Shown here piece by piece: positions 1,780 to 63,867 of a stretch of 64,000 nucleotides of DNA (position 1 is its first letter; the number at the start of each line of letters is the position of its first letter). Where the stretch lies: contig OZ252219.1 of assembly GCA_965249105.1 (NCBI GenBank), forward strand, positions 3,634,941 through 3,698,940, read 5' to 3'. Both the position numbers and the translations under genes were made by a program. The notes beneath the pieces were generated by a model. The model saw nothing but the letters and a program-made list of their open reading frames with translations. It did not search any database and was not told where the DNA came from. The DNA is from Vicinamibacterales bacterium (GTDB lineage: Bacteria; Acidobacteriota; Vicinamibacteria; Vicinamibacterales; UBA8438).

Positions 1780-1803
1780 GCGTCCTGACCGGTTTCACGC
1801 TCG

Positions 1804-1966
1804 TAGTGCAGTGGTTCAGAAATACCTCGGCATCCGGCCACCGATGCATCCCTTCTGCCTGCGTTGCTCCTCAGTCACAGATTCCCGATTTGCTCCTTCG
1901 TCGCGCCTGGCCAGACGGGTGCGTCGGCGCCCTCGGTGCACGAGGTATTTCTGAACCACTGCACTA
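1804..1966. repeat. 163-bp long-hairpin (MITE/ERIC-like) element, copy 1
   Basis: Perfect 27-bp inverted repeat GTAGTGCAGTGGTTCAGAAATACCTCG (1803-1829 / 1941-1967), TA at both ends, core shared with copies at 6583, 12458 and 18862. Confidence 0.85.
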
Positions 1967-1976
1967 CAGCGTCTAC

Positions 1977-3006
1977 TAACGCGTTTTTCGAAAAGCTCTA
2001 GTACTCGGTAGGCGGTTCATGGTACTCCTACGTGCAACGTCCACGGGGAGGATCAATGCGCGCCTATTCGATGGATCTTCGCGAACGTGTACTCCGCGAT
2101 AGCGACGCTGGGATGAAGGCGGCCGCGGTCGCGGTCAAATACCACGTGAGTGCCTCCTGGGTCCGGCGGCTCAAACAACGACGGCGGGAGACCGGCGAAG
2201 TTGCCCCCCGCCAGCAGCCCTACGGGCGGCATCCCGTGCTCGCGCCCCAGCTGCATACCCTCGTGGCGCTGATCCGGGAGCAACCGGACCGCACCCTCGC
2301 CGAACTCCAGGTGGCCCTGGGCACGTCCGCCAGTCTGGCAACGATCTGGCGGGCCGTGAAACGGTTGGGCTTCACCCTTAAAAAAAACGGTACGCGCGTC
2401 CGAACACGATCGCCCCGACATCGCGACCGCGCGCGCGCAGTGGGCGGCGACCGCCCCGACCCTCGACCCGACCCACCTCGTCTTTCTCGATGAAAGCGGG
2501 GTCGCCACCAATCTGCTCCGCCGCTATGGGCGCGGGCCGCGCGGCCAGCGGGTCGCCGATCACGCGCCCCAGGGGCGGTGGGAGAGCAGCACCTTCATCG
2601 CCGCGCTGCGGGTGACGGGGCTCACCGCCCCCGGAGTCCTCGATGGCCCCATGGACGGGGCCAGCTTCCTCGCCTACGTCGAACAGATCCTCGTCCCGAC
2701 GTTGCAGCCCGGCGACATCGTCATCGCCGATAATCTCGCCGCCCACAAGGTCGACGGCGTCCGGGCCGCCATTGAAGCGGCCGGCGCGACGCTGCGGTTC
2801 CTGCCGCCATACAGCCCCGACTTCAACCCGATCGAGTTGTGCTTCGCCAAACTCAAAGCCATCGTTCGCAAGGCCCGCTGTCGCTCGATCGACACGCTCT
2901 GGCCACTCCTCGGCGAGTGTCTGTCGCGCTTCACCCCCACCGAGTGTCGCAACTACGTCCGGCATTGCGGCTACGCGGCCGCCAAAGCGTTATGAAAAAC
3001 GCGCTA
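1977..3006 (+). mobile_element. IS630-family insertion sequence
   Basis: Imperfect terminal IRs TAACGCGTTTTTCGAAAAGCT (1977-1997) / AGCGTTATGAAAAACGCGCTA (2986-3006), TA ends, encloses a split IS630 transposase. Confidence 0.9.
2056..2995 (+). CDS. IS630 transposase in two frames (HTH orfA + DDE orfB) joined at the A8 run 2380-2387
   Basis: [15 protein letters not shown] start with GGAGG RBS; after the shift [13 protein letters not shown]...FLDESG...DNLAAHK...[12 protein letters not shown]. Confidence 0.88.
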
Positions 3007-3026
3007 GCTCGCCTGAGTGCCGGCCC

Positions 3027-4181
3027 TCAGAGCCGCTCCGCGCCGATGGTCAGCCGATGAATCAGACCGGCGGTCAGGGCCGCCCTCCACGGCAGCTGAT
3101 CGACGATCACGTGCTCATGCAGGGCGTGTGCGCCGTCACCGACCGCACCCAGGCCATCCAACGTCGGCACACCCAGAGCGGCCGTCAGGTTTCCGTCGGA
3201 ACCGCCACCGGTTGAACCCTCTCCGAGCTCGCGACCGAGCTCTGCCGCGAGTTCCTTCGCTATCGTGTACAGACCGATGACCTCGTCGGTTCGTTCGAGC
3301 GGCGGTCGGCTGAACCCGCCGGTGACCTCGACGGTGGTGCCCTCCAGCTGGGGAACGATCGAACGAACCGCCTGGTCGACCCGGTCACGGTCGGAGGCCG
3401 TTGACACGCGGATGTCGATGACGGCCCGTGCCTGTGGGGCCACGACGTTCGGTCGACTCCCACCCTCAACGACCCCGACGTTGACCGACACGCCGCGTTC
3501 ATGGTCGCGAAGAGACTCGATCGCCAGAATCTGACGCGCGATCTCGTGAACGGCACTCGCCCCCTTCTCGGGCTCAATTCCCGCATGCGCGGGCACGCCT
3601 CCCACGCGCAACTCGAACTCGCCGCACCCCTTGCGGGCCGTCTTGAGCGCCCCACCGGGCAAGGACGGCTCGAGCACCAGCACCGCGTTGCTCCGTCGCG
3701 CTTCGTCTTCGACCAGCCCCCGGGAGGTCTGGCTTCCACGTTCCTCGTCCGATGTCCACAGCATGACGACACGGGCGGCCGGCGGCCCAGCTTCCTCCAA
3801 AAGCGCACGCATCGCCAGCATCGCGATGGCGATCCCCGCCTTCATGTCATAGACCCCAGGGCCCAGGAGCCGCCCACCCTCTTGACGCAGTGACATGCGC
3901 TCGAGCTGACCGACTGGCCACACCGTGTCGAAGTGTCCGAGAACCAGAAGTTGCGCGGGACCGTCGCCGAAGCTCGCGCGCAGGTGATCGCCAGCGGTCT
4001 CACTGGGGATAGCTTCGACGACCGCGCCGGCATCCCTCAACCGGCACGTGAGCTCGTCCCCACACCGATCAACCGCGGTCTTGTCAGTCGTCGGCGACTC
4101 CAGGGCAGCCAAGGCCATCGTCGTCTCGACCAGCCACTCCCGCTCGCTCTCACAGAACTGGAGGAGGTTTCCCAGATGCAT
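3027..4181 (-). CDS. M20 family metallopeptidase (carboxypeptidase G2-like)
   Basis: GHFDTVW, GPGVYDMKAG, DEERGS, GGGSDGN, GAHALHE metal-binding motifs. Confidence 0.9.
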   Translation of the reverse strand: MHLGNLLQFCESEREWLVETTMALAALESPTTDKTAVDRCGDELTCRLRDAGAVVEAIPSETAGDHLRASFGDGPAQLLVLGHFDTVWPVGQLERMSLRQEGGRLLGPGVYDMKAGIAIAMLAMRALLEEAGPPAARVVMLWTSDEERGSQTSRGLVEDEARRSNAVLVLEPSLPGGALKTARKGCGEFELRVGGVPAHAGIEPEKGASAVHEIARQILAIESLRDHERGVSVNVGVVEGGSRPNVVAPQARAVIDIRVSTASDRDRVDQAVRSIVPQLEGTTVEVTGGFSRPPLERTDEVIGLYTIAKELAAELGRELGEGSTGGGSDGNLTAALGVPTLDGLGAVGDGAHALHEHVIVDQLPWRAALTAGLIHRLTIGAERL

Positions 4182-4279
4182 CAGGTCCCCATATGAGCCA
4201 GCTTGCGTGGCGTCCGGCTGCTCCGCATAATGGTCATGTGACCCTGGCGATACGGCGTCCGCTCTCGGTGGCGACCGCG

Positions 4280-4747
4280 ATGAGTTCGGCGCCTCCAGCG
4301 CTCCTGATCATGCTGACATTGGTGTTCACCAGCGCCCATGTCACCGCGCAACAAGGGAACCCCGCCGATCCCGCCGGTGACACACCGTCGGAAACCGAGG
4401 TGGGGTTCCCGATCTATCCCGCTTCCGTGTACCTCACCTCGTATGACGCCGGGCGCGGTCAGCGATACTATCTGTTCGGTACAGCGTCCGGCTACGAAGA
4501 AATGGTTCGCTACTACGCCATCGTGCTGGATGAGCGCGGTGACGAGGTGTTCAAGGCGCCAGCCACCCACGTGTTCGAGATCGGCAGGTTTCGGGAGGAC
4601 AGCATGGCGTTCCCACCGGGCGTGACGATCAAGGACTACACGTGGAACGGGTCGGAGGGCTATCTCGACCCGACTCCCGGGTCGAGTGCCCGCTACGCGA
4701 CCGTGATTCAGTTCGTGCCGCCGCCATCGGGCGAGGTAACGCGATAG
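4280..4747 (+). CDS. Hypothetical exported protein (start uncertain; ORF open from 4193)
   Basis: Signal-peptide-like ALLIMLTLVFTSAHVTA followed by a plausible globular domain; fills the gap between genes. Confidence 0.65.
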   Translation: MSSAPPALLIMLTLVFTSAHVTAQQGNPADPAGDTPSETEVGFPIYPASVYLTSYDAGRGQRYYLFGTASGYEEMVRYYAIVLDERGDEVFKAPATHVFEIGRFREDSMAFPPGVTIKDYTWNGSEGYLDPTPGSSARYATVIQFVPPPSGEVTR

Positions 4748-4762
4748 GCCAGCCCTTGTGTC

Positions 4763-6742
<1,980 letters not shown>

Positions 6743-6745
<3 letters not shown>

Positions 6746-7918
6746 GCCCAGACGACGCATGACCAGGCACTTGAGGTAGGACGTTTCCGGCACGCTGACC
6801 AGCACCGGATGGTCACGACTCTGGAGCCGCCTCTCCAACAGGACCGCGCGAGCGCGGGCGTCGTTGGCGGCGTCGGACACGAGCTCCGTGAACGTCGCCT
6901 CATCGACGTGGGTCGACCGGCAACAGGTCACCAAAGTGCCTCCGGGAGCCAGCAGGGCAAAGGCCCGAAAGTTGAGCTCCTTGTAACCAGCCAGAGCCTT
7001 CGACATCGCACTTCGGTTTCGGGCCAGAGCCGGTGGGTCGAGGACGATCGTGTCGAATCTGACCCCGGCCCGGCTCAGTTCAGGCAGGAGCTCGAAGACG
7101 TCGGCCACGCGCGGACGGAGTGTCGTGACGCCGTTCAACGACGCGTGCTGCGTGAGCCTCTCCACGGCCGTTGGTGACGAATCGACCGCCACCACCTCCG
7201 CGCAGCGTCGGGCGAGATGAAGCGCGAATCCACCGGTGTAGCAAAAGCAGTCCAGTGCCCGTCCGCGCGCATACTCGGCGGCCAGCAGCCGATTCTCCCG
7301 TTGGTCGAGAAAGAGCCCCGTGGAATCACCCTCCCAGGGATCGACCCGCAGGTCGACCGACCCGTCCCTCACCACCACGTCGCGAGGAACCTCGCCGTAC
7401 AGCAACTCGACGCGCCGCGGTAGCCCCTCCAGCGCCCGAATGTGTGCATCGTGTCTGGCCAAGATGCCTGTCGGCCGCACGAGCTCGACCAGGGAGTCCC
7501 GAATGAGCTGGAGGTGCCGATCGACACCCTGTGAGAGCGCCTGAAGCACGAGAACATCTGAGTAGCGGTCAACCACAAGCGACGGCAGCAGATCTCCCTC
7601 GGCATGGACCAGCCGATACGCCGTGGCATCGATGGCGAGCGTCTGCCGATACGCGATGGCGTCCGCGAGTCGCTCTCGCCACAGCGAGGCGTCAGGCGGT
7701 CTCCCGGTCCGAGTCATCAACCGGACCGCAATCGGCGACCGGTCACTGAACAACCCGTGACCGAGTGTTCGGCCGCGCGGTCCAACCAGCGCAACCACGT
7801 CGCCGGGTTGTGCGTCGACCGTTTCTATGTCGGCACGATTCACCCACAGGTGACCGGCTCGAATCCGATGCTCAGCCCGTGAGGTAATCCGGGCCGTTGC
7901 CGTCTCACGATCGCGCAA
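6743..7918 (-). CDS. RlmI-like class I SAM-dependent methyltransferase (PUA-like N-terminus)
   Basis: GHLWV, AYRLVHAEGDLLPSLVVDRY, TGLFLDQRENR, LDCFCYTGGF, DTIVLDPP, DHPV..PETSYLK. Confidence 0.88.
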
Positions 7919-7925
7919 GGGGGCT

Positions 7926-7935
7926 ATAGTACAAT
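7926..7935. promoter_or_regulatory. Overlapping divergent -10 boxes (TACAAT +, TACTAT -), probably leaderless transcripts
   Basis: TACAAT 7930-7935 lies 6 nt before the rpiB ATG; minus-strand TACTAT 7926-7931 lies 7 nt before TTG 7918; no SD on either side. Confidence 0.55.
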
Positions 7936-7941
7936 CTCGTC

Positions 7942-8415
7942 ATGCGAATCGCGCTGGGCTCTGATCACTGGGGCGTCGCCCTCAAGGCGCGGGTGATCGA
8001 GAGGCTACGTCAGCGGCCCGAGGGTGACCTCGAGTGCCATGACTTCGGACCGTCCACCGACGAGGCGGTTGACTATCCAGACTACGCCGCCAAAGTGGCC
8101 GAAGGTGTGGCATCAGGTGACTACGACCGCGGCATCCTCATCTGCGCCTCGGGTATCGGCATGGCGATGGCCGCGAACAAGGTGCATGGAGTTCGCGCGG
8201 CATCGATCGACGACGCTGAAGCGGCTCGTGCAACGCGAGAGCACAACGACGCGAATATCCTGGCGCTCGGAGCGCGCCGTGTGTCCGACGACGAGGCGCT
8301 CGCGATCATCGACGCGTTCTTGACGACGCCGTTCGGTGGCGGGCGACACCAACGGCGGGTCGACAAGATCGCAGAGATTGAAGGCGCCCAGGCCGGCACC
8401 CTCCACGACGCCTAG
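7942..8415 (+). CDS. rpiB: Ribose-5-phosphate isomerase B
   Basis: GSDH, VDYPDYA, GILICASGIG, REHNDANILALG, GGRHQRRVDKI. Confidence 0.95.
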   Translation: MRIALGSDHWGVALKARVIERLRQRPEGDLECHDFGPSTDEAVDYPDYAAKVAEGVASGDYDRGILICASGIGMAMAANKVHGVRAASIDDAEAARATREHNDANILALGARRVSDDEALAIIDAFLTTPFGGGRHQRRVDKIAEIEGAQAGTLHDA

Positions 8416-8448
8416 TCCTAGAAAACGGGACACCCGAAAAGACGAGAA

Positions 8449-9747
8449 ATGACGGACACGCTCGACTCGGTGACGAACCTAACACCCGCGGGCCACGGCC
8501 TGATGCGTCCCCTCGCGGAGACCGACCCTGAGATTGCCCAAGCGTTGCGGGACGAGATCAACCGGCAGAACACCGGAATCGAACTGATCGCATCGGAGAA
8601 CTTCGTCGGCACCGCGGTGCTCGAGGCGATGGGGTCGGTGCTGACCAACAAATACGCCGAGGGATATCCTGGGCGCCGGTACTATGGCGGGTGCGAGTGC
8701 GTCGATGTCGCCGAGCAACTGGCCATTGACCGGGCCAAGGCGCTGTTCGGGGCCGAGCACGCCAACGTCCAGCCCCACTCCGGGGCCCAGGCCAACATGG
8801 CGGCCTACTTTGCCCTGGTCAAACCCGGAGACACGGTCCTCGGGATGAGTCTCGACCATGGTGGGCACCTGACGCACGGCCACGCCCTGAACTTTTCCGG
8901 ACAGCTTTACGACATCGTGGCCTATGGCGTGCGGCGGGAAGACGAGCGGATCGACTATGACGAGCTCGAGCAGCTCGCCCGGGACCGTCGACCCAAGATG
9001 ATCATGGTCGGTGCCAGCGCGTATTCGCGGGTCATCGACTTCGAGCGGATTGCCACGGTCGCCCAAGAGGTGGGCGCCGCTATGGTCACGGACATGGCTC
9101 ACATCGCAGGTCTGGTAGCCGCCGGCATCCATCCCAGTCCGGTACCACACTCCGATGTCGTCACCACGACCACCCACAAGACCCTGCGCGGACCACGCGG
9201 CGGACTCGCGCTGTGCCGAGAGGCGCACGCCAAAGCCCTCAACCGGGCACTCTTTCCCGGGGTGCAGGGTGGCCCCCTGATGCACATCATCGCGGCGAAA
9301 GCGGTGTGCTTCAAGCAGGCCGGCGAACCGGGGTTCGTCGAATACCAACACCAGGTCGTCGCCAATTCCCAGCGACTTGCGGCGTCCCTGGCGGCGCAGG
9401 GCTTCAGGCTGGTCAGCGGAGGAACCGACAATCATCTCTTGCTCGTCGACGTGTTCTCGCAGGGACTGACCGGCAAGGTAGCCGAAGCCGCCCTCGGAAA
9501 CGCCGGGATCACGGTCAACAAGAACGCCATCCCCTTCGATCAGAACCCGCCGATGGTCGCGAGCGGTATCCGCCTCGGCACACCGGCGGTCACGACGCGC
9601 GGGATGAGGGAGCCGGAGATGGATGTCATCGGCGACCTGATCAACCGCGTTCTTTCGGCTCCCGACGACAACACGGTCGCGAGCTCGGTGCGCGACGAAG
9701 TTGAAAGCCTGTGCCGGACGTTCCCCCTGTACCCAGACCCGAGCTAG
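8449..9747 (+). CDS. glyA: Serine hydroxymethyltransferase
   Basis: [52 protein letters not shown]. Confidence 0.98.
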
Positions 9748-11723
9748 CGGCGCTGCGGGCCGACGTCGACGACGCGTTTGCCGACGACGGTCCGCTTGCC
9801 CAGGCACTCCCGACGTTCGAGCCCCGACACAGCCAGCGCGAGATGGCGGCGGCAACGGCCGACATCTTCGAGGACGGCGGTGTCCTCCTCGCGGAGGCCG
9901 GCACGGGCACCGGCAAGACGCTCGCGTATCTGGTTCCCGCGATCTTGAGCCGACAGCGCGTGCTCATCTCCACCGGCACGAAGAATCTGCAGGATCAGAT
10001 CTACGACAAGGATCTGCCGGTCCTCCGAGACGCACTCGATATCCCGTTCACCGCCACCTATATGAAGGGCCGAGGGAACTATCTGTGTCTCCACCGGTTC
10101 GATGACCTCCGAGAAAGCGACGAGTTACGGACGCCCGTCGAGCTGGCGTATCTCGAATCGCTGAGGCAGTGGTCGACCCAGACCGAGACGGGCGACCGAT
10201 CGGAAGTCGAGGACCTGCCTGACGACCTGCCCATCTGGCACGAGATCGCGGCAACCTCGGAGAACTGTCTGGGGACCGAATGTCCCCAGTACGACGAGTG
10301 CTTCGTCACACGAATGCGGCAACGGGCGAACGAGTCGGACCTCGTGATCGTGAACCACCACCTGCTCTGCGCCGACGCCAGTGTCCGCCAAAGCGCCTAC
10401 GGTGAGGTGATCCCGAGTTGCAGCTACGCCGTGATCGACGAGGCCCATCAGCTCGAGGATGTCGCCACGCAGTACTTCGGCGTCGCGGTCAGCAACTATC
10501 GCGTCGACGAGCTGGCCCGTGACGCCCACCGCGTGCTGGGCTCCGACCCGACGGCCGCCGACCCGGCCGCCGCTGACATCCATCGCATCGTCGACCGGAC
10601 GCGGGACCACGCGCGAGTGTTCTTCGGCGCGCTGCTGAGACCCGGGGCTTCTACCGGCGAACGGACCCGCGTCACCGCCGAGGCGCTGGCTCCCGCCACG
10701 GAACCAGGACGCGGCGTGATGACCGCCTTGACCGACCTCGAGCAAGCGCTCTCGCACCTACATGACGCCTCCGAGGACATGCTCGCAATCGGCCGGCGCG
10801 CGGCCGAGATCCGCGACCAGCTCACCTTCCTGTTGGCTGCTTCGGACCCCGACTTTGTGTACTTTCTCGAGGTGCGGGGGAAGGGTGTGTTTCTTCGTGC
10901 CGCGCCTATAGACGTATCGCGCATCGTCAGGGACGCTCTGCTCCACCGAAACCAGGGGACGGTGCTGACTTCGGCCACCCTCACGGTTGATGGGTCCTTC
11001 GACTACATCCGAGGACGGCTCGGGCTCGCCGACGCCTTCGAGGTCCGATTGGCATCGGAATTCGACTTCCGCACGCAGGCCGTCCTGTATTTGCCAAAAC
11101 ATATGCCTGACCCGAGGCACGACACCTTTACCTCCTCCGTTGCCAGCGAGCTCATCAACCTCCTCGCGCTGACGGAGGGGCGCGCATTCGTGTTGTTCAC
11201 AAGCTACGCGAACCTCAGAGCGGTCCACGCGCAGCTGGCGGCACGGCTGCCCTACCCGCTCCTCGTTCAGGGGACGGCGCCGCGGACCGTGCTCCTTCGC
11301 GAATTTCGAACGACCCCTCACTCCGTCCTCCTCGCCACGTCGAGTTTCTGGCAGGGCGTGGATGTCGCCGGTGACGCGCTGAGCTGCGTTGTGATCGACA
11401 AGTTGCCGTTCGCGTCCCCCGGCGACCCGATCACGTCGGCCCGTATCGAGGCGATCACGACCCGTGGCGGCGATGCCTTCGGTGAATACCAGGTGCCGTT
11501 GGCGATCCTCGCGCTGCAGCAGGGCCTGGGGCGGTTGATCCGCCATCGCCAAGACCGAGGGGTGCTCGCACTACTCGACCCCCGTGTTCGGACAAAAGGG
11601 TACGGGGCGCGTTTTCTCGCTAGCCTGCCCCCAGCGCCCGTGGTGCGCGACCTCGAGCAGATCGCCGAGTTCATTGGACCATCCGAGCAGCCTGCGCCAT
11701 CGGGCGGCCTGCCCCTGCGATAG
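9711..11723 (+). CDS. dinG: ATP-dependent DNA helicase DinG/YoaA family (Fe-S)
   Basis: [17 protein letters not shown], Fe-S Cys cluster, IDEAH, TSATL, GRLIR. Confidence 0.93.
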
Positions 11724-11734
11724 ACTGGCGTGGC

Positions 11735-12460
11735 GTGAAGGAGAGTCGCTCTCTCGCGGCCACGACGGCCGCCAATGCCGCCGGCGTGCGCGAAAGGATC
11801 GACAAAGCGGCACGCCGGGCCGGACGCGACCCTGGGTCCGTCTGTGTGGTGGCCGTCGCCAAGAAGTTTCCCCTGACCCATGTCCGTGCGGCAGTCGACG
11901 CAGGGCTCGAGCACATCGGGGAGAACCGCGTTCAGGAGGCCGTGGAGAAGATCGCCGGGGCTACCGGCCTCTCGGTCACCTGGCATTTGATTGGGCACTT
12001 GCAGTCCAACAAGGCCGGTCAGGCGGTCGCCAGCTTCCCGTGGATTCATTCTGTCGACAGCGTCGGGCTGCTCCAGCGGCTCGACCGGCTGTCAGCGGAA
12101 GCCAACACCACACCCAACCTACTGGTCCAGGTCGACCTGGCGAACGAGGCCACCAAGCACGGCGCGTCGGTCGACGACACCCATCGCATCTTCGAGGCGG
12201 CCGCGCACTGTCACAGCGTCAGAATGCGAGGCCTGATGGTGCTGCCACCACGGACTGAGGTCGCCGAGGGAGCACGACCGTTCTTCCGCCGGCTCCGTGA
12301 GATGCGTGACACGCTCATCGAGCAGGGCGTCGATCGAGCGATGCTCGGCGAGCTGTCGATGGGAATGAGCGGCGACTTTGAGGTCGCGGTCGAGGAAGGT
12401 GCGACGATTGTGCGCGTGGGCACCGGAATCTTCGGCCCCCGGCCACGCCCTGAAGCCTAG
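11735..12460 (+). CDS. yggS: YggS family PLP-binding protein
   Basis: VAVAK, GENRVQEA, WHLIGHLQSNK, LSMGMSGDF, GATIVRVGTGIFG. Confidence 0.95.
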   Translation: MKESRSLAATTAANAAGVRERIDKAARRAGRDPGSVCVVAVAKKFPLTHVRAAVDAGLEHIGENRVQEAVEKIAGATGLSVTWHLIGHLQSNKAGQAVASFPWIHSVDSVGLLQRLDRLSAEANTTPNLLVQVDLANEATKHGASVDDTHRIFEAAAHCHSVRMRGLMVLPPRTEVAEGARPFFRRLREMRDTLIEQGVDRAMLGELSMGMSGDFEVAVEEGATIVRVGTGIFGPRPRPEA

Positions 12461-12620
12461 TGCACCGCCGTCGAGAAACGGTCAAGGGATCGGGTTCGCA
12501 GCGTGCCCAACCGCAAGGCGCCGCGACGAGGAATACATGACGTATTTCGAGAAGCGGGAACGCAGCGGATGGGTGTGCTGCGAGCGCGAGGATTGACCGG
12601 GTCTCGATGGCGTTGCACTA
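12458..12620. repeat. 163-bp long-hairpin element, copy 3 (most divergent core), CTAG at both ends
   Basis: 28-bp imperfect IR 12458-12485 / 12593-12620; core GCAAGGCGCCGCGACGAGG...GAGAAGCGGGAACGC; fills the whole yggS/lepB gap. Confidence 0.8.
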
Positions 12621-13304
12621 GGTCACCTGCTTGAGCATCCGCCCCCAGCGGGTGCCGGTGAAGAAGTTGACCGCCACCGAGCCCAGCCGTCGTATCGTCG
12701 CGACAAGTCCAGTTTCTGGCATGAGCTCGGGGACCCCGTCGAACGACCAGTAGATGACGAACGCCTTGCCCTTCACGTAGGCATGCGGCAACGGACCCCA
12801 GAAGCGACTGTCCTGCGAGTTGTCGCGATTGTCACCCATCATGAAATAGTTCGCGTCGGGGATCGTGATCGGCCCGTGGTTGTCCCGGCGGTCTATGGCA
12901 ATCGCGCCGGCACGTGAGGGCGGCTGGTCGTCAAGGTAAGGCTCCTCGATCGGGCTCCCGTCAATGAACACCTGCCGGTCTCGAACCTCAAGGGTCTCAC
13001 CGGGCAACCCGATCACGCGTTTGATGAAGTCGCGCTCCGGGTCCTCGGGAAACTTGAACACCAGGATGTCACCACGCCGCACATCGCTCGTCGGCGTGAA
13101 CACCTCGTCACCGGTCAACAACGGGTTGAAGACGAACTTGTTGACCAGCAGGTGGTCGCCGATCAGCAAGTTGTTCTCCATCGAACCAGTCGGGATCTTG
13201 AAGGCCTGCACCACCCAGGTCCGGATAAACAGGGCAAGAACCACCGCGATGGCGATCGTCTCGAAATACTCTCGTGCCGTCGACTTCTTGAACGGTTCAC
13301 CCAT
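12618..13304 (-). CDS. lepB: Signal peptidase I
   Basis: IPTGSM (catalytic Ser), FIKRVIGLPG (Lys), MGDNRDNSQDSR. Confidence 0.96.
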   Translation of the reverse strand: MGEPFKKSTAREYFETIAIAVVLALFIRTWVVQAFKIPTGSMENNLLIGDHLLVNKFVFNPLLTGDEVFTPTSDVRRGDILVFKFPEDPERDFIKRVIGLPGETLEVRDRQVFIDGSPIEEPYLDDQPPSRAGAIAIDRRDNHGPITIPDANYFMMGDNRDNSQDSRFWGPLPHAYVKGKAFVIYWSFDGVPELMPETGLVATIRRLGSVAVNFFTGTRWGRMLKQVT

Positions 13305-13307
13305 CGA

Positions 13308-15110
13308 CTACTCCGCGCGGAGCTTGAGGACCGCGAGAAAGGCTTCCTGTGGTATCTCGACTTGCCCTACCCGCTTCATCCGACGCTTGCCTTCCTTCTG
13401 CTTCTCCAGCAACTTTCGCTTCCGGCTGATATCACCACCGTAACACTTGGCCAGCACGTTCTTCCGGAGGGCGTGGACGGTCTCGCGAGCGATGATCCGG
13501 GTCCCCACTGCGGCCTGGATCGCCACCTCGAACATCTGACGAGGAATCAGCTCTCTCATCTTGGTCGCCAGCGCGCGCCCTCGCTGATACGCCATGTCAC
13601 GGTGGATGATCACCGAGAGCGCATCGACCGGCTCACCGTTGACCATGAGGTCCAGCCTCACCAGCGGCGATTCCCAGTACCCGGTCACATGATAGTCAAG
13701 CGACGCGTAGCCGCGCGAAATCGTCTTGAGGCGGTCATAGAAATCGAGCACGATTTCGTTGAACGGCAGATCGTAGGAGATCATCACCCGATTGGACGCG
13801 TGATACTCGAGATTCTTCTGAACCCCACGTTTCTCCTGACACAGTTTGAGAATAGCGCCTACGTAGTCGGCCGGCGTAAGGATCATCGCGGTGATCACCG
13901 GCTCCTCGACCTTGGCGATCCGACTGGCGTCTGGAAGCTTCGCCGGACTGTCGATCTCGGCAACCTCGCCGTCGGTGGTCGTCAGCCGATACAGCACCCC
14001 GGGCGCGGTCGTGACGAGGGCCATACCGAACTCCCGCTCCAGTCGCTCCTGCACGACCTCCATGTGTAGAAGGCCAAGAAACCCGCACCGGAAGCCGAAT
14101 CCGAGTGCCGCAGACGTTTCCGGCTCAAAGAAGAACGACGAATCGTTCAGCCGCAGCTTGTCCAACGCGTCGCGAAGCTCAGGATACTGGTGGCTCTCGA
14201 CCGGATACAGACCGGCAAAGACCATGGGCTTGAGCTCCATGAAACCGGGCAAGGGCTCGGTGGTTGGGCGGACGGAGTCGGTGATCGTGTCACCGATCTT
14301 GGCATCGCGGACATTCTTGAGGCCGACGATCACGAAGCCAACCTCTCCAACTCCGAGGATGTCAACCGGCTCGGGCTTTGGCGAGAACACACCCACCTGC
14401 TCGACCTCATAGTCCTGCCCTTGCGCCATGAAGCGCACCCTGGCCTGCGGCCGGATCTCGCCGTCGAACACCCGGATCAAGGCGATGACGCCGCGATAGG
14501 CGTCGTACCACGAGTCGAAAATCAGCGCCTTGAGTGGCCCCTCGGGTGGGCCGTGGGGCGGCGGCACCCTGGTGACCACAGCCTCCAAGATCTCACGAGT
14601 ACCTGTTCCGGCCTTGGCGCTCGCCAGGAGTGTGCCCGCCCGGTCCAGACCAACGAGGTCCTCGATCTGGGTATGAACGTCATCGATCTGAGCACCCGGC
14701 AGGTCAATCTTGTTGATGACGGGAATGATCTCTAGATTGTTGTCGACGGCAAGATAGGCATTGGCCACGGTCTGCGCCTCGACCCCCTGCGACGCATCGA
14801 CGAGCAGCAGGGCCCCTTCGCACGCCGCCAGCGACCGGGTGACTTCGTAGGAGAAGTCCACGTGACCGGGAGTGTCGATCAGATTCAGGACGTACTCGTC
14901 ACCGTCGTCAGCCGTGTAGAGCAATCGGACCGTCTGCGCCTTGATGGTGATCCCACGCTCGCGCTCCAGGTCCATGCTGTCGAGCACTTGCGATTCCATC
15001 TCGCGCGGACGCAACGCCCCCGTCAATTCGAGAAAGCGGTCTGCCAGCGTCGACTTGCCGTGGTCGATGTGGGCGATGATGGAAAAATTGCGAACGCGGT
15101 GATGATTCAT
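13308..15110 (-). CDS. lepA: Elongation factor 4 (LepA)
   Basis: [59 protein letters not shown]; start set at ATG 15110. Confidence 0.98.
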
Positions 15111-15141
15111 CTCTGCCTGCCGGGCGAATTCGACCGCTACG

Positions 15142-16293
15142 CTACGAACGTTCGGGGCGTTGGTCGAGCGGCACGAACGTCTGCGGGTACGCTGGCCCGA
15201 CGTACTCGGCCCGGGGCCGGATGAGACGGTTGTTGGCGTACTGCTCCAGCACGTGAGCCGTCCACCCCGAGACACGGCTGACCGCGAAGAGCGGTGTGAA
15301 CAGATCGATCGGAATGCCGAGCAGGTAGTACGTGGAGGCTGAGTAGAAGTCGACGTTGGCGTCGATTGTCGTCTCCTCTTTCATGACCGACTCGATCCGC
15401 GTCGAGATCTCGAACCACCGCGTGTTGCCGACCCGTTCGCCGACCTCCTGTGACATCCGACGAAGATGGGTGGCGCGTGGGTCCTCCGTGCGATAGACCC
15501 GATGACCAAAGCCGGGGACCTTCTCTTTCTTGCCCAGCTTCTGCCGGACGAAGTCCTCGATGCGCTGGTCGTCGGCATCCTCTCCGATCGCGAGCAGCAA
15601 CCGCATGACGGCCGCGTTCGCACCGCCATGCAACGGACCCTTCAGGGCGCCGACGCCGGCGACGATGGCCGAGTACAGATCGCTCAGCGTGCCCGCCGTC
15701 ACCCGCGCAGCAAAGGTAGAGGCATTCAGCTCATGGTCGGCATGAAGGATCAGGGCAATGTCGAGTGCGCGGGTCTCCACCGCGCTCGGCCTGCGCCCCG
15801 TGAGCATGAGCAGGAAGTTTGCGGCCTGCCCGAGCGCTGGGTCAGGTTCGATGGGGCCGCCACCCTGCGTTAGCCGACCATAGGTGGCAACCAGGCTGCC
15901 CATCTGCGCCGTCAGGCGAACGGCCTGCCGGTATCGTGCGGCCTCAGAGGTGTCGTCCACGTCAGAGTCGAAATGGGACAACGTTGACGTCAGGGTACGC
16001 ACGGCGTCCATTGCGCCGCCCGGTGGCAGCGTACGCATGGCGCGCAGCACACCCTCGGGAAGACGTCTCGCGGCGGCCAGCTGCGACTGAAGGTCACCGA
16101 GCTCGGCGCGCGTGGGTAACCGCCTGTGCCACAAGAGGAAGCAGACCTCCTCGAAGGTGGCGTGCCTGGCCAATTCGTGAATGTCGTGGCCGGCATACGC
16201 CAACACGCCATTCGCGCCGTCCAGGTAACAAATGGCCGACGAGGTCGCGACGACGCCCTCGAGCCCGGCCTCAGAAGGAGATGCTGCGCTCAT
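15142..16293 (-). CDS. gltA: Citrate synthase (short type; citrate/2-methylcitrate synthase family)
   Basis: [47 protein letters not shown]. Confidence 0.92.
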
Positions 16294-16333
16294 ACTGTCG
16301 AGTGTACCGCAAGCACCGACCGGACCAGGAGGC

Positions 16334-17986
16334 TTAGGGGCGCTCGAGTGTGGTGAGTGTCCCGGTGATTGGCGACGCGATGTCTGAGCCACGACCCCCG
16401 GGTGGCCATCCGCCAGTCATTGGTATCCGATGCGCATCGCCCCGCGACTGCTGCTGCACGAACGGGAGCAGCGCACTGTAGAGAAAGCCCGCCTGGAACA
16501 GACACAGAACCGGGAGCAAGGCGAAGAGCCCGGTCGAACCAGCGTAGACGACAGCCGCCGTATAGTAGAGCCCGAACCCCAGCTCGACGAGGGGCTGCGC
16601 GACCGACGACCGCCGATAGCGTTTGGACAGCCAGTCATCCCTCCGGTCGACCACCGCGTACTTGGCGGTGCGTTCGAAATCGTGCCGACCATCAACCCGC
16701 GCTCCCACCACGGCCAGCGTGTTGTTGACGGTCAGCCCGACCCCAACCGCCATGAGCAAGGGAAGATACCGGAGCTGGGCAACCCAGTTCTCTCCTACGG
16801 CTCGCTGGCTGAGGACATAGAAGTTCGCCACCGACACCGATGCCGCGCAAAACAGCGGTAACTCGACGACGAGGAGGGTCTCGAGGCCCACGCTGGCTCG
16901 AAGGAAGAGGGCGGGAACCATGACGACGCACAGGAGCAACAGAAGCGGATAGTTGAAGTTCGCCGTCAGGTGAAACAACGCTTCTACCTTGTTCCGGAGA
17001 GGAATCTCTGCTCGAAGTAACCTCGGTAACAGCTTGAGGCAGGTCTGGATCGAGCCTCGTGCCCACCGAAACTGCTGGGTCTTGAACCCGCTCATCTCGA
17101 CCGGCAGTTCGGCCGGCGCGACCACATTCGGAAGGAAGACGAACTTCCATCCGGCGAGCTGAGCCCGATAACTCAGGTCGAGATCCTCCGTCAGCGTGTC
17201 GTGATGCCAACCGCCCCCGGATTCAATCGCCTTGCGTCGCCAGACACCGGCGGTACCGTTGAAATTGAAGAAGAGCCCACCACGATGTCGGGCACCGTGC
17301 TCAAGCACAAAATGCGCGTCGAGAAACATCGCCTGGATACGGGTCAGTATTGAATACTCGCGGTTGAGGTGTCCCCACCGCGCCTGGACCATCCCGACGT
17401 CAGGGTCGTCAAACGGTCGGACTGCTCGTTGCAAGAAGTCCGGATGTGGCACGAAGTCCGCGTCAAAGACGGCGATGAGCTCACCCCGAGCCGACCGCAG
17501 CCCATTGGCCAGGGCTCCCGCCTTGAAGCCAGTCCGGTGGTCACGGCGTAGGTATCGGATCTGGACGCCGCGGGCCGATGCCCGCTCACAGGCTCGTCTG
17601 GCGAGCGGGCCGGTCTCGTCGTCATCGGCCGAGTCGTCGAGTATCTGCACCTCGAAACGCTCTCTGGGATAGTCCATCGCTGTCACAGCATCGACCAGGC
17701 GGTCGACCACGTACATCTCGTTGTACACGGGCAACTGGACGGTGACGAACGGCCAGGCGATAGATCCGTCCGAGCGACGGGCGTCGATGGCCGTGGCGTG
17801 AGGTCGTGCCGGATCGACACCGGCGTTGGGAGGGGCCGACCGTCGATGTTTTATGTAAAGATACACGAGGTAACAGCGATGCAACCCGTACACGCTCAGA
17901 CATCCCACGAGGGCGAAGTAGAGCCCGAGCAGAAGTGATTCGGGTGCAGTCATCGGCGGGGGAAGTCGATGAGGACGCTCGTTCAC
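16334..17986 (-). CDS. GT2 glycosyltransferase, cellulose-synthase-like, multi-TM
   Basis: VTVQLPVYNE, GFKAGAL, FDADF, TEDLDLS, QQFRW (QxxRW). Confidence 0.92.
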   Translation of the reverse strand: MNERPHRLPPPMTAPESLLLGLYFALVGCLSVYGLHRCYLVYLYIKHRRSAPPNAGVDPARPHATAIDARRSDGSIAWPFVTVQLPVYNEMYVVDRLVDAVTAMDYPRERFEVQILDDSADDDETGPLARRACERASARGVQIRYLRRDHRTGFKAGALANGLRSARGELIAVFDADFVPHPDFLQRAVRPFDDPDVGMVQARWGHLNREYSILTRIQAMFLDAHFVLEHGARHRGGLFFNFNGTAGVWRRKAIESGGGWHHDTLTEDLDLSYRAQLAGWKFVFLPNVVAPAELPVEMSGFKTQQFRWARGSIQTCLKLLPRLLRAEIPLRNKVEALFHLTANFNYPLLLLLCVVMVPALFLRASVGLETLLVVELPLFCAASVSVANFYVLSQRAVGENWVAQLRYLPLLMAVGVGLTVNNTLAVVGARVDGRHDFERTAKYAVVDRRDDWLSKRYRRSSVAQPLVELGFGLYYTAAVVYAGSTGLFALLPVLCLFQAGFLYSALLPFVQQQSRGDAHRIPMTGGWPPGGRGSDIASPITGTLTTLERP

Positions 17987-18102
17987 CGACGGTACAGTTC
18001 GGCGGTCGGCAAGTCAAACGGTCGATCGTGTACGATTCGCCCCCTCTGCCCCACTGATACTTCGGCAACCCAACAGAGCGGCTGCCGCGCGGCGGACCAC
18101 AC

Positions 18103-18864
18103 ATGAACCAGCAGCAAGTGCGCGACATCCTCAAGGGTGTCGAGGGTGGCGCGGTGACGGTGGACCAGGCGGAGGGGCAGCTCGTCGACATCCTGCGTCG
18201 CATCCCCTTCGAAGACCTCGGGTTCGCGCGCGTCGACCACCACCGGTCCGTGCGACAGGGATTCCCGGAAGTGGTGTTCGGCGCGGGTAAGACGGCCAGT
18301 CAAGTCGCCGCCATCGCTGAGAGTATCGTCGAAGCGGGACACAGTCTGCTGGTCACCCGGACCGATAGGGCGGCACACGAGGAGGTACAGAAGGTTGTCC
18401 CCGGCGCGACGTTTCATGAGTGCTCCAGGACGATCGCCTACCGCAGCACGGGGCAACCGACCGGACAGGGAACGGTGCTCGTTGTGGCGGCGGGCACCTC
18501 AGATCTCCCGGTCGCTGAAGAAGCCAGGGTGACGGCGGAGACGTTGGGCAATCACACCGACACGCTGTATGACGTGGGGGTCGCGGGACTCCATCGCATG
18601 CTCGCTGAACGGGAGCGTCTCGAGGCAGCGCGGGTCATTGTGGCGGTGGCGGGAATGGAGGGCGCCCTGCCCAGTGTCATCGGCGGTCTTGTCCGAGCCC
18701 CAGTCATCGCCGTGCCCACGAGTATCGGATACGGTGCAAGCTTCGGGGGTCTCGCAGCCCTGCTGGGCATGCTGAACAGTTGCGCATCGGGTGTCGCCGT
18801 CGTAAACATCGACAACGGGTTCGGTGGAGCGGCCATGGCGAGCGCCATCAACCACTTGGCCTAG
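18103..18864 (+). CDS. larB: Nickel-pincer cofactor biosynthesis protein LarB (PurE-like)
   Basis: FARVDHHR..GFPEVV, AGTSDLPVAEEA, DVGVAGLHR, AGMEGAL, PTSIGYG, VVNIDNGFG. Confidence 0.93.
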   Translation: MNQQQVRDILKGVEGGAVTVDQAEGQLVDILRRIPFEDLGFARVDHHRSVRQGFPEVVFGAGKTASQVAAIAESIVEAGHSLLVTRTDRAAHEEVQKVVPGATFHECSRTIAYRSTGQPTGQGTVLVVAAGTSDLPVAEEARVTAETLGNHTDTLYDVGVAGLHRMLAERERLEAARVIVAVAGMEGALPSVIGGLVRAPVIAVPTSIGYGASFGGLAALLGMLNSCASGVAVVNIDNGFGGAAMASAINHLA

Positions 18865-19025
18865 GAGTCCGTGGTGAAAGTCGCTCTGCATTCGACCGAC
18901 GACGCATCTCGGCTGGCGGCGTTGCTTCTCGGTCACATAGGCCCACTATTTTCCCTCGTCGCGTCTTGCCAGCCGGGCGCCTCGCCGGTCTCGGTGCGTC
19001 GCGCGACCTCCACCACGGGCTCCTA
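18862..19025. repeat. 164-bp long-hairpin element, copy 4
   Basis: 23-bp IR with 3 mismatches (18862-18884 / 19003-19025); minus-strand core GGCAAGACGCGACGAGGG...GTGACCGAGAAGCAACGCCGCC. Confidence 0.85.
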
Positions 19026-58996: not shown

Positions 58997-59968
58997 CAGG
59001 GCGGCCCCAATCGCCACGCCGGCAACCAGGGCTATGCCGCCAACGACGTAGAGCAGAGAGCGCTGCCAGCCAGCGGTTCCAGAGGATTCCGCCGCGCTGG
59101 TTGGTCGCAGCAGGCTTTCAAACGCTCCCTCCATTGCCAGCTGCACGTCGCCAATATCTCGAACGCGACGCGCTCGGTCTTTCTCGAGACAGGCGTGCAG
59201 GATCTGAGTGAGTCGGGGAGCTGTGTCGGCGGGCAACGCATCCCACGCTGGCTCGCTCTTCATGACTGCTGCAATCGTGTCGGTGAGGTCCTCACCGGGG
59301 AACGCCCTGCGCCCCGTCAGCATCTCGAACAACACCGCACCGAATGCCCACACGTCTGCTCTCTTGTCTACCGTTCGACCCTTCGCCTGTTCAGGGGCCA
59401 TATACGCCGCCGTCCCCATGATCACGCCCATCTGGGTGGCAGCAGCAGTGAGGGTCGGCGACAGCGAGGGATCACCTTGCGGTGTTGTGTTCTGGGCTTT
59501 GGCGAGGCCGAAGTCCAGCACCTTGACGGTCCCGTCATCTCGCACCTTGATGTTGGCCGGCTTCAGGTCGCGGTGAATGACACCGGCTTCATGCGCCGCT
59601 TCTAGGGCCTCAGCGATCTGTTTCGCGATGGGTAGGGCTTCATCCAGCGGGATCGGTCCTTTGGCGATGCGATCAGCCAGCGTTGGCCCTTCGATCAACT
59701 CCAAGACGAGCGCCCGCGTGTCGCCCGACTTCTCTAGCCCGTAGATCGCGCCAATGTTGGGATGGTTGAGCGAGGCCAGCACCTTCGCTTCACGCTCGAA
59801 CCGAGCCAGCCGGTCGGGGTCTGCGGTGAAGGCGTCGGGTAGCACCTTGAGGGCTACGTCCCGGTCGAGGGTCGTGTCGGTGGCCTGATAGACCTCGCCC
59901 ATGCCGCCTTCGCCGATGAGGGCGGTCACGTCGTAATGGCCGAGGCGGGAACCGACTTCGAGCGCCAT
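58892..59968 (-). pseudogene. Hanks-type Ser/Thr kinase with TM helix; C-terminal propeller lost at ~58892 (ORF reads on to 58334)
   Basis: GEGGMGEVY, VALKVL, HRDLKPAN, DFGLAK, GTAAYMAPE intact; family-like sequence stops at GGMAIS. Confidence 0.8.
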
Positions 59969-60060
59969 GATCTAAGGATGGAGAACTGGAGGCCATTCTA
60001 TGCCCAAGCTATGGTTCGCTCCAGTTTGACAGTGCCAGCCGTGGCCTATAGCGTCCGCCC

Positions 60061-60420
60061 ATGGACGTGTCGGAGCTCACACCCGAGCAGCTTGAGAAGC
60101 TACATCAGGCTCTCGAGCGCGATCGACTACGCCTGGAAGAACACCTCCAGCTCACCAAAGAGGGCTCGAAACCCGTCCAGATCGGCACCCCGATGGGGCG
60201 TGTCTCGCGCATGGACGCCATTCAACAACAGCAGATGACCAAGGCGGGCCGCGCCTCGCTCGACATCAAGCTGCGGCAGGTCCGCGCCTCGCTCGAGGCG
60301 TATCGAAAAGGTGACTACGGCTACTGCCGTTCCTGCCACGAGCCGATCGGATACCCACGGTTGAAGGCTCGTCCCGAGGCACCGTTCTGTTTGAACTGCC
60401 AGGACACCAGCGAGTCTTGA
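60061..60420 (+). CDS. TraR/DksA family C4 zinc-finger protein
   Basis: GRVSRMDAIQQQQM, YGYCRSC..RLKARPEAPFCLNC. Confidence 0.9.
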   Translation: MDVSELTPEQLEKLHQALERDRLRLEEHLQLTKEGSKPVQIGTPMGRVSRMDAIQQQQMTKAGRASLDIKLRQVRASLEAYRKGDYGYCRSCHEPIGYPRLKARPEAPFCLNCQDTSES

Positions 60421-60905
60421 ACGACCTCGGCACACGCCCAGTTGGTGTACAGCGAGATGACCCGAGCGGACACTCGGCTAGACAGAACGCAGTCGTGCCG
60501 CCCAACCGCCTCTGCGAAGCTTGCGTACGCTTTCTGACGGCATTTCGAGTCGTGAGGCGACTCAGGCTAGGTCGGGACGGAGATCGTGCGGGAGAACCCG
60601 TGCGTGCGCTTTGTGGCGAGACGGCTCAGTGCAACGTGTTGCACTCGCCACATGTGAGGCGGGCTTCAACTATCAGTCGACGGGCACGTCACCGAGGCCT
60701 AGGGTCGTCGTTTCGTGAAGTGGCGAGCGCACAGCGCCAAAATGTGTGTCGCGTAGCACAGGCCGGCGCTATGAGCGTCTAGAATCACGCACAACCTGCG
60801 CCATCGTCACTCCGCTTGACGCCCGCTTCAGATCTACCTGAGGGCAACCCGTTGCTCAAGGATAAGCGGAGCGAGCGGTCGGCGATCCGGAGGGAGCGGC
60901 AAGAC

Positions 60906-61814
60906 ATGCACCATGTCCAGGTTCATTACGTGGAGCACCACGACGCGAACATCGACATCGGGCCGCACGTGTTCCGGACCGAGAAGTACGGAATTGTCCC
61001 GCGCGTGCTCAGGTCAGAACTCGGGGTCGGGGACGAGCGTTTTCATTCGGCCAACAGGCTCGAGGAGGACGATTTGGCTCGGGTTCACACAGCCGCGTAC
61101 ATCTCCGACCTGCAGCATGCCCGTACCACCCCGGCCACTGCCGCCAGCGAGCTGCCGGTCAACCGCGCCGTCATCCAGGGGTTCTTGGCCATGACGGGTG
61201 GCAGCATCACGGCGGTTCGACTCGCCCTCGTGCACGGCATCGGCTTTCACCTCGGCGGGGGGTTCCACCATGCCTTCTCAGACCACGCCGAGGGCTTCTG
61301 CTACGTCAATGATGTGGCCGTCGCTATCGAACGCAGCCGCGCCGACCGAACGCTGGGTAAGGTGCTGATCGTCGACGTGGACGTGCACCAGGGCAACGGC
61401 ACGGCGGCGATCTACGCGCACGACTCCGACATCTTCACCTACTCCATCCATCAGGACCACAACTACCCGGTCAAACAGCGCAGCGACTTCGACCGCGGCT
61501 TGGTGGACGGCCTCGAGGATGCAGAGTATCTGCGGATCTTGGCCTCTGACCTGGACGCGATCGCGCTGCGCTTTGCTCCGCAGCTGGTCTGCTATTTAGC
61601 CGGCGTCGACCCCTACGAACACGACCAACTCGGGGGTTTGAGACTCACGCAAGAGGGCCTCCAGCGACGCGATCGCTACGTGTTCGACCGGTTCGTCCAG
61701 CGTGGGATACCCATCGCCGTGCTGCTCGCCGGAGGCTACGCCCGAACCCCACAAGAAACCTCCATGCTTCACGCTGGCACCGCACGAGCCGCCGAGGCAG
61801 CGTGTGTGGCATAG
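60906..61814 (+). CDS. Histone deacetylase family (Zn-dependent) protein
   Basis: GGGFHHA, GFC, DVDVHQGNGT, GVDP, LAGGY. Confidence 0.92.
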   Translation: MHHVQVHYVEHHDANIDIGPHVFRTEKYGIVPRVLRSELGVGDERFHSANRLEEDDLARVHTAAYISDLQHARTTPATAASELPVNRAVIQGFLAMTGGSITAVRLALVHGIGFHLGGGFHHAFSDHAEGFCYVNDVAVAIERSRADRTLGKVLIVDVDVHQGNGTAAIYAHDSDIFTYSIHQDHNYPVKQRSDFDRGLVDGLEDAEYLRILASDLDAIALRFAPQLVCYLAGVDPYEHDQLGGLRLTQEGLQRRDRYVFDRFVQRGIPIAVLLAGGYARTPQETSMLHAGTARAAEAACVA

Positions 61815-61856
61815 CGTGTGTCAGCCCGCCGGACGGCGCAGGTGAGCCATCCGGCT

Positions 61857-62036
61857 TCAGTGTGACATCCGCTGCTTCAGATCGGGATCGGCCGCGACGT
61901 GTTCGGGCAGCACCTTGGTGGCGACGGTGCGGTCCAACCGGGTATCGGTGCCCTGGTAGACCTGCCCCATGCCCCCCTCGCCGATGAGGGCGGTGACGTC
62001 GTAGTGCGCGAGGCGGCTACCGACGGTTAAGGCCAT
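61857..62036 (-). pseudogene. Ser/Thr kinase 5' stub (59 aa)
   Basis: Hand translation [59 protein letters not shown]. Confidence 0.85.
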
Positions 62037-62275
62037 AAGTTGTACGAGTTAGCCCGATTCAGCGCCATGATAACGAAGCCGGTGAGGTGGCGCACTTCTC
62101 CCCCGCTCTATACGTGCAAACGACAGGAAAGAAGGCTCGGGCCGTACTGGCGGGAGTGCCACCGGTGCCAACTGGCTGATCCCGATGCGACGTGTCGTTC
62201 AGGGCAACGTGCTGTGGGACAGCAAGTTAGGTTCGGCCGAGTTTTGGCACAGCACGGGGTGGTTTCAGAGTCAAA

Positions 62276-63019: not shown

Positions 63020-63086
63020 GACTCGGCATCCTGATTGTCGTGTTGACTCCGGATGGTTAGTTCGTACGACCCGCACCTCGGTTGGG

Positions 63087-63209
63087 CTACCGCGCCACTT
63101 GCCGGTTCAGCTTGGTATCAGTGGCCTGATAGACCTGCCCCATGCCGCCCTCGCCGATGAGGGCGGTCACGTCGTAATGGCCGAGCCGGGAGCCGACGGT
63201 CAACGGCAT
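63087..63209 (-). pseudogene. Ser/Thr kinase 5' stub (40 aa)
   Basis: Hand translation [40 protein letters not shown]. Confidence 0.85.
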
Positions 63210-63248
63210 GGGTTGGGGGAATTGGCCCTGGTGCTGCGTCTCGCCAGA

Positions 63249-63659: not shown

Positions 63660-63717
63660 CGACTTCCTCCCTTTTTGAACGAGTTCACGAAGGTACCGGT
63701 CGCTAGACTGACACCTC

Positions 63718-63867
63718 TCAGGACGTCCTCCCTTTCGGCAAGACCTTCAGCGCCACGTCCCGGTCGAGCTTGGTGTCTCTGGCTCGATACATCTGGCCCA
63801 TGCCGCCTTCGCCGATCTTGGCGGTGACGGCATACGGGCCGAGGCGGGAGCCGGGGCCTAGGGACAT
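63718..63867 (-). pseudogene. Ser/Thr kinase 5' stub (49 aa)
   Basis: Hand translation [49 protein letters not shown]. Confidence 0.85.

Follow-up and report, generated by a model that had tools for sequence, protein, structure and literature searches.

The window analysed here, a stretch of 64,000 nucleotides from the genome of a Vicinamibacterales bacterium (Acidobacteriota), carries four short intergenic repeats that an earlier reading of the letters alone (the sequence-only reading) had described as one family of hairpin elements, fixed in length, with differing arms around a conserved core. Refolding confirmed their coordinates, their lengths (163, 163, 163 and 164 bp) and the single long hairpin formed by each; target duplications are counted in these lengths, and without them the elements measure 158-160 bp. 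No fifth full copy was found in the window. The cores below were scored with a covariance model of the core, R1, and the letters A to I denote subfamilies in the 6.1-Mb genome.

1804..1966, minus strand: copy 1, subfamily A; TA duplications at 1804-1805 and 1965-1966, element proper 1806-1964
1851..1918, minus strand: core of copy 1 (R1 76.2 bits), with three tandem GA/GA, a CAA bulge and an apical stem-loop
6583..6745, plus strand: copy 2, subfamily B; IS630-type ends, right TA at 6744-6745, left duplication decayed to TG
6630..6697, plus strand: core of copy 2 (R1 81.2 bits)
12458..12620, plus strand: copy 3, subfamily G; bounded by TA, with a divergent core
12506..12573, plus strand: divergent core of copy 3 (R1 28.3 bits, E 5.9e-5)
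18862..19025, minus strand: copy 4, subfamily F; ends of the IS1182-like class
18909..18976, minus strand: core of copy 4 (R1 64.9 bits)

The right TA of copy 2 sits within the stop codon of a minus-strand methyltransferase gene, and both TAG ends of copy 3 are the stop codons of convergent genes, one with an alanine racemase domain and one for a signal peptidase. If its duplication is 4 bp (with one mismatch), copy 4 occupies 18865-19022 between CTAG and CTAA; a TA reading fits too. As had been proposed, the core is conserved and copy 3 is more distant: global alignment gave 46/57 identities between copies 1 and 2 and 46/58 between copies 2 and 4, near the earlier hand counts, with 41/57 between copies 1 and 4 and 29-37 of 56-60 between copy 3 and the others. 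Despite this divergence, the R1 match identifies the core of copy 3 as homologous to the rest. The arms had been called unrelated between copies, and this stands for the outer 28 bp or so, the true terminal inverted repeat (TIR), where 9-17 of 28-30 positions are shared and no likeness extends past the first bases. It does not stand for the inner arms, some of which are homologous (19/27 and 17/26 identities between copies 1 and 4). Within each of the four copies the TIRs are self-complementary at 22-26 of 28 positions.

Across the genome, a profile of the core gave 77 matches at E<=1e-3, the best match in the reversed genome having an E of 2.3, and of the 126 long inverted repeats picked up by a hairpin scan blind to the core, 69 had spans in the 160-179 bins. 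BLAST with nine subfamily representatives recovered 70 full copies of 161-164 bp, and copy 4, added by hand, brings the total to 71, so that lengths cluster genome-wide as the fixed-length claim would have it. The full copies fall into subfamilies A (28), C (13), B (12), E (7), D (4) and G (3), with BLAST counts of one each for F, H and I; subfamily F comprises two copies including copy 4, 79% identical to each other. Other than in F, mean identity inside subfamilies is 93-98% (A 96.6%, G 98%). Remnant loci are most numerous in C (29), followed by D (9), E (5) and A (4), with none in B or G. By our own gene calls on the genome, no copy lies within a predicted gene, while 42 of the 70 full copies overlap a stop codon because the target is CTAG. 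A chimeric remnant at G000:C1:4952245 has the left arm of subfamily D and the right end of subfamily C, and a separate family of palindromic repeats of about 245 bp (G000:C1:474172, 3212943 and 6059026) is not matched by the core profile.

Comparison of orthologous loci, which the sequence-only reading had suggested, revealed empty alleles for copies 1 and 2. Copy 2 is missing from runs X5 and X9 (contigs of close strains) with a net difference of 161 bp, which fits a 2-bp duplication, and the empty allele has CA in place of the expected TA. Copy 1 and an adjoining insertion sequence (IS) of the IS630 family are both missing in X8 and X9, with a single TA left. In run X5, nine bases of the right TIR of copy 1 remain at a joint with 4-base microhomology, a near-complete deletion (window 1788-3004). 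At the loci of copies 3 and 4 the element is present in 0 of 10 congeners, nine of which have both neighbour genes at the copy-3 locus, and a search of the same genome for paralogous empty sites gave none for any of 70 copies. At window 12460-12618, where copy 3 stands alone here, four of ten congeners have 351-444 bases between the convergent genes, apparently a small open reading frame (ORF). The empty alleles in strains, the target duplications and the transposon-like ends described below bear out the suggestion of a mobile unit. [quoted passage not shown] Different elements are also found tandemly stacked with one target duplication common to them (L170, L184 and L176 in G065 and G063, and G021:C1:2421761-2422156).

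The ends of the elements match several kinds of IS. In subfamily A each of the two TIRs agrees with the right end of IS630-A, a resident element of 1138 bp (16 right ends seen in the genome, 13 paired copies), at 22/25 positions and with its left end at only 16/25; the IS630-A protein scores 251.6 bits against NF033545. The ends of subfamily C match a second resident element, IS630-C, at 18-19/25, and the end of subfamily B (copy 2) matches an IS630 of a relative (G195, locus L325) at 24/28 as read by eye. The proteins of all three partners pass NF033545. The TIRs of copy 4 and of locus L036 agree at 20-21/25 with the left end of an IS1182-like element of genome G067 (DUF772, 1465 bp), with copy 4 scoring at most 14/25 against IS630 and ISAzo13 ends, and IS1182-like copies have exactly duplicated NTAG 4-mers at 13 of 15 sites, including ATAG, GTAG and TTAG. 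A third end class, present in other genomes, has TNA and then GGG; one such element (L045) matches the end of an ISAzo13 of its own genome at 19/25. The ISAzo13 partner scores 558 bits with NF033519, and among 18 stretches screened for partners of this type one held the IS and 17 held MITEs or nothing. Off-class end scores are 5-14/25. Duplication length also differs by end class, being TA with IS630 ends (copies 1, 2 and probably 3), 4 bp with IS1182-like ends (copy 4) and 3 bp with ISAzo13 ends; in subfamily E it is 3 bp. These matches to DDE transposons, resident or in relatives, support the proposal of an enzyme acting in trans. As partners for subfamily E, IS701 was rejected (ends unlike in the loci examined, 14 of 30), as was ISAzo13, whose ends in 30 loci do not match.

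The sequence-only reading had also suggested looking for a transposase flanked by the core. None turned up in 25 IS loci or next to matches to Y1 transposases compared by eye, and R1 found no core inside the IS630, IS1182-like, ISAzo13 or IS701 elements of those 25 loci, its single match lying outside the IS, nor was there one inside the resident IS630s. Because the interior is absent from the IS examined, the four repeats are not deletion derivatives of their partner IS.

The interior is held in common by elements with different ends. Within the order, 39 of 61 genomes had matches to a copy-2 query, chiefly over positions 40-115, and R1, built and run as the earlier reading had advised, found matches in 13 of 101 genomes across the phylum. 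The exact core pattern occurs at at least 120 GTDB loci. Among the matches listed, 84 are titled Acidobacteriota, 30 belong to eight other phyla and 6 are unassigned, which places the core in record titles of nine phyla, although most of these records are metagenome-assembled genomes and some phylum labels may therefore reflect wrong binning; Nannocystis radixulma (L064) is an isolate among them. The core had no match in a plasmid collection and 0 exact matches in viral contigs. Sixty-three of the 120 listed loci are standard forms with classifiable ends (contig ends, long forms and unclassified loci were dropped), and together with eight of our own representatives they were dereplicated to 46 for a tree. 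Interior identity across end classes reaches 85-90%, and is 85-86% between the IS1182-like and IS630 classes, in keeping with the earlier claim that the core is more conserved than the TIRs. The interior tree needs 8 changes of end label where the minimum is 3. The distance from left end to core is 54-57 bp (about 55±1 bp) in 50 of 54 elements with both ends parsed: 13/17 IS630-like, 24/24 IS1182-like, 11/11 ISAzo13-like and 2/2 of a fourth class. This left spacing is retained in two longer forms, one that adds a side hairpin (about 200 nt) and one that adds a second, inverted core (about 270 nt). In the forms of about 270 bp (L172, L131, L136 and L050, from Nitrospirales, Verrucomicrobiota and other records) the two cores are opposite, one per strand.

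The sequence-only reading had named two outcomes that would speak against it: TIRs belonging to separate IS families together with scattered lengths, or a core that matches a described family. The TIRs do match separate families in part, but lengths cluster and no described family matches, and the finding therefore becomes one of 'one interior, several end types'. Rfam, searched with window 1-25000 and 20 loci, returned nothing near the gathering score, and a Transposase-2 RNA hit at E 4.9 was dismissed. We found no description of the element in the open literature; copies may stand catalogued in ISfinder or in MITE sequence lists (10.1101/2024.01.18.576219; here and below, comparisons with published work refer to the available portions of each source) without this anatomy.

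On one strand, the GA strand, the core reads C-GA-N-GA-GN-GA-G-CA, a loop, then TG-T-GA-NC-GA-N-GA-G, with a CAA bulge. Folded, it has three tandem G·A/A·G oppositions with one or two pairs between them, and tandem G·A/A·G is a stable sheared motif. Across 42 non-redundant cores, 91.9% of cells are paired. Double changes number 115 compared with 36.3 in shuffled alignments (0/500 as high), and slid controls gave 13-26; this covariation supports the claim that fold and core are under selection. Two GA/GA tandems enclose the lone pair 19-53, which is CG in 17 of the 42 cores, GC in 14, AU in 6, UA in 1, GU in 1 and unpaired in 3. Oppositions of the G·A kind far outnumber C·T ones in the inner arms (152 vs 20), a bias present in 43 of 46 elements and along the whole rod, whereas G·T and A·C stand at 41 and 51. 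With RNA energies, the GA-strand fold has z scores of -2.95 to -8.65 and displays the GA tandems. In the left TIRs, 10 of 27 private substitutions are mirrored in the right TIR of the same copy, with 0.23 expected; elsewhere such mirroring is found at 0/15 in the inner arms and 1/9 in the core. Mirrored changes are the expected product of template switching at quasi-palindromes (PMC7202029), suggesting that the elements fold and undergo template switching in vivo.

The orientation of the elements relates to replication in this genome, not to transcription. Between tandem genes 16 copies are sense and 18 antisense, and at single stop codons the count is 17/36. With dnaA at 4.90 Mb, the terminus near 2.0 Mb and an inverted segment left out, the GA strand is part of the leading-strand template for 35 of 39 copies outside subfamily A (p 3e-7), including all of E (7/7) and G (3/3). 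Exact-pattern matches in four other genomes, with the terminus assumed opposite dnaA, gave 23/32 (G025), 12/16 (G016), 8/12 (G069) and 56/96 (G068), or 99/156 in sum; G019, G020, G033 and G046 had too few matches and were left out of the count. Partial copies are more often on the lagging template (10/26), a count that duplicates and symmetric remnants make only suggestive. An IS200-like element with 50 exact-match copies genome-wide has 40 co-oriented with the fork, several of them at the terminal CTAG of remnants. In G000:C1:3700000-4450000 the GC skew is inverted and the IS200 copies are oriented as the surrounding replichore; this segment is likely an inversion that predates the IS200 burst.

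Other features of the window lie beside the repeats, among them the IS that adjoins copy 1.

1977..3006, plus strand: neighbouring IS630, two ORFs with an A-run frameshift; ends unlike the copy 1 TIR

We considered this IS as the partner of copy 1 and rejected it, as the ends do not resemble each other; it is likely a co-insertion in the same TA region. The 10-bp spacer between the two (window 1967-1976) also stands before another copy of this IS (G000:C1:5447851) and is missing in the empty allele; the IS may have carried this flank from its donor site. A weak R1 match (20 bits, E 0.008) at 3675-3713, inside an M20 peptidase gene, is probably due to chance. At copy 2 a promoter scan found none, and there was no thiamine pyrophosphate (TPP) riboswitch upstream of thiC (window 6400-6580). 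Four 143-nt direct repeats of 69-76% identity at 59814-63855 are probably a repeated protein domain.

We think it moderately probable that the repeats represent one MITE lineage in which a hairpin interior of about 105 bp is common, the outer 27 bp or so match IS630, IS1182-like or ISAzo13 elements, and the ends have been replaced several times, the element being moved in trans while its interior is retained for a single-stranded DNA (ssDNA) fold that aids its spread. A portable DNA scaffold of this kind likely swaps ends to use whichever transposase is present. Under this model the cognate DDE transposase would act on the TIRs in trans, and the GA strand would fold once exposed at the replication fork or in a cruciform. 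Template switching on the hairpin would copy one TIR onto the other and could thereby symmetrise a newly acquired IS end, fixing it on both sides. The tandem G·A pairs may give a stable single-strand fold while the duplex stays short of a perfect, unstable palindrome. The persistence length of DNA is about 150 bp. Folding would bring together the two ends of a molecule of roughly that length and so help synapsis, and the fixed end-to-core spacing would be accounted for in this way. We infer the core's role in the spread of the element from these features, and the interior would be retained because it promotes proliferation, most likely in that it pairs the two ends of a DNA whose shortness makes bending hard. 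We hold with less confidence a bolder form of the idea, a 'universal adaptor' that we consider speculative and rather improbable, in which the ssDNA rod with its three sheared G·A tandems would pre-pair the ends so that any grafted DDE end becomes an efficient substrate, the element transposing from the hairpin or cruciform and spreading over phyla by serial capture of IS ends.

Several observations weigh against the end-replacement model. When DNA energies are used, the interior of three of the four copies folds barely better than shuffled sequence (z -1.9, -1.2 and +0.4), the DNA-energy fold being clearly favoured for copy 3 only, and in the alignment behind the covariation (A2) the search pattern had fixed the invariant columns in 37 of 42 rows, making these uninformative, while the variable columns were free. 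Support for the interior tree is weak, with 4 of 43 branches starred, and no intermediate turned up that carried a newly captured IS end. The best NCBIfam family for the DUF772 element of G067 is IS1182 at 162.9 bits against a curated cut-off of 270, and no partner IS for copy 3 or subfamily E was found among the ends examined. The replication-strand bias is real in this genome and not general: subfamily A is unbiased (15/26), G035 shows no bias (23/50 among the matches listed) and G021 leans the opposite way (23-26/63). Simple loss from the lagging template is not the whole explanation of the bias, since E and G are no older than A but show it, and B has left no detectable remnants.

The alternative that we take most seriously, though we regard it as distinctly less probable, accepts the same MITE with swapped ends and makes the core a duplex site, at a fixed distance from the ends, to which a host protein or one associated with the transposase binds, the complementarity being a by-product of template switching. 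It would account for the fixed spacing and the weak DNA folding scores; the core halves can also be read as GA-rich direct repeats, the mirrored mutations show that a symmetrising process is at work, and the 155-bp Correia element has an internal site for IHF (PMC2229807). Mirroring is nevertheless limited to the TIRs, yet isolated core pairs covary through four pair types, and the purine-purine polarity of the mismatches runs along the whole rod. An RNA structure useful to the host, such as a transcript stabiliser, attenuator or nuclease site at gene ends, seems unlikely to us as the reason for keeping the interior. The RNA energies of the GA strand are favourable, GA positions have fewer private changes (3/768 vs about 1.5%, p=0.01), predicted stop codons are often overlapped and A-type copies are present in contigs of two RNA runs. 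Set against this, the stop-codon overlap is a consequence of the CTAG target, the RNA contigs extend into the flanks with no discrete RNA, the loci are polymorphic among strains and absent in congeners, and an RNA role fits poorly because G·T is not above A·C in the arms. As an RNA, the regulatory unit entertained by the sequence-only reading is thus little supported, as orientation shows no bias to transcription.

We give still less credence to a history without end replacement, in which one ancestral MITE drifted along with its transposases and the core was merely inherited; this is very improbable for the family as a whole. Interior similarity is somewhat higher inside end classes than across them (0.74 vs 0.69), the starred branches are compatible with one origin per end class, and drift may hold among the IS630-type subfamilies, ISAzo13 being distantly related to IS630. 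However, IS1182-like and IS630 ends are alike in target bases only and differ in duplication length although their interiors reach 85-86% identity, and a neutral core would not stay above the arms in conservation across the nine phyla of the listed record titles. Least credible of all is a structure-specific single-strand enzyme (an integron integrase, RAYT or other HUH enzyme) reading the core. The fold is strand-specific with fixed bulges, the leading-template bias here resembles that of attC arrays in sedentary integrons (25/30; PMC5371416), and the genome has 61 Y1 matches. Most of these, however, are one multi-copy IS200, and those near remnants abut the terminal CTAG by eye; compared by eye with element positions, with RAYT and IS200 counted together, none of the 61 is flanked by the core. 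No integron integrase exceeds the cut-off (TIGR02249 at best 114.9 bits vs 265), the copies are solitary with no cassette arrays, and TIRs with 2-4 bp duplications fit DDE enzymes. The attC- or REPIN-like logic proposed earlier accordingly found no support, and sequence evidence indicates that the mover is a DDE transposase rather than an enzyme of the attC or RAYT type.

A MITE lineage with replaceable ends, as we favour, can be set beside several known systems. Like Correia/NEMIS, ERIC and RUP elements, the repeats are 100-200 bp long and non-coding, with TIRs, a TA duplication and a long stem-loop (PMC2229807, PMC3184786); RUP likewise has an IS630 partner, and Correia an internal motif (PMC2229807). 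Different bacterial MITEs have been described as lacking similarity between interiors (PMC3184786), and unlike those families, each with its own interior in the portions available, the one interior here carries the ends of three IS families at a fixed end-to-core distance. The nearest precedent, on what is available of its description, is the coral CMITE group, in which the interior is more conserved than the TIRs and is not partner-derived, tandem arrays occur and an aid to transposition was proposed (PMC2872659). Those elements are eukaryotic and all piggyBac (TTAA duplication, CC[C/T]T ends), and the portion of PMC2872659 available to us describes neither ends that cross superfamilies nor a covarying fold. 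The piggyBac hallmarks are lacking in our elements, where duplications are TA, TNA or NTAG and ends begin GT, GG, CAG or GAG. Internal sequence modulates transposition beyond the TIRs in mPing and other plant MITEs (PMC9921582), as we propose here, though theirs descends from the autonomous element, is sequence-based and belongs to one transposase system (PMC9921582). Integron attC sites are also imperfect palindromes that fold on one strand, and share the leading-template bias seen in this genome (PMC5371416). Unlike them, our elements come with no integrase over the cut-off and no cassettes, they have DDE-type TIRs and duplications, and their bias is not general. REPINs and REP-RAYT systems are short hairpin repeats at gene ends, present in many copies. 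Our repeats resemble them in this, but have ends that belong to IS families, with no core-flanked RAYT seen by eye. What is new here is one interior that carries the ends of unrelated IS families; MITE status itself is of a known kind.

MITEs are classed by their ends and usually seen as IS deletions, which binds each family to one transposase. In the lineage described here, a single interior would have outlived its transposases by taking on the ends of unrelated IS families, which would explain how a non-coding parasite persists and crosses phyla. A core model also finds MITEs that clustering by TIR splits into unrelated families. A 160-bp system makes both the contribution of a MITE interior to transposition and the synapsis of ends in very short elements testable, and should the core raise transposition whatever the end, transposon tools would gain a useful component.

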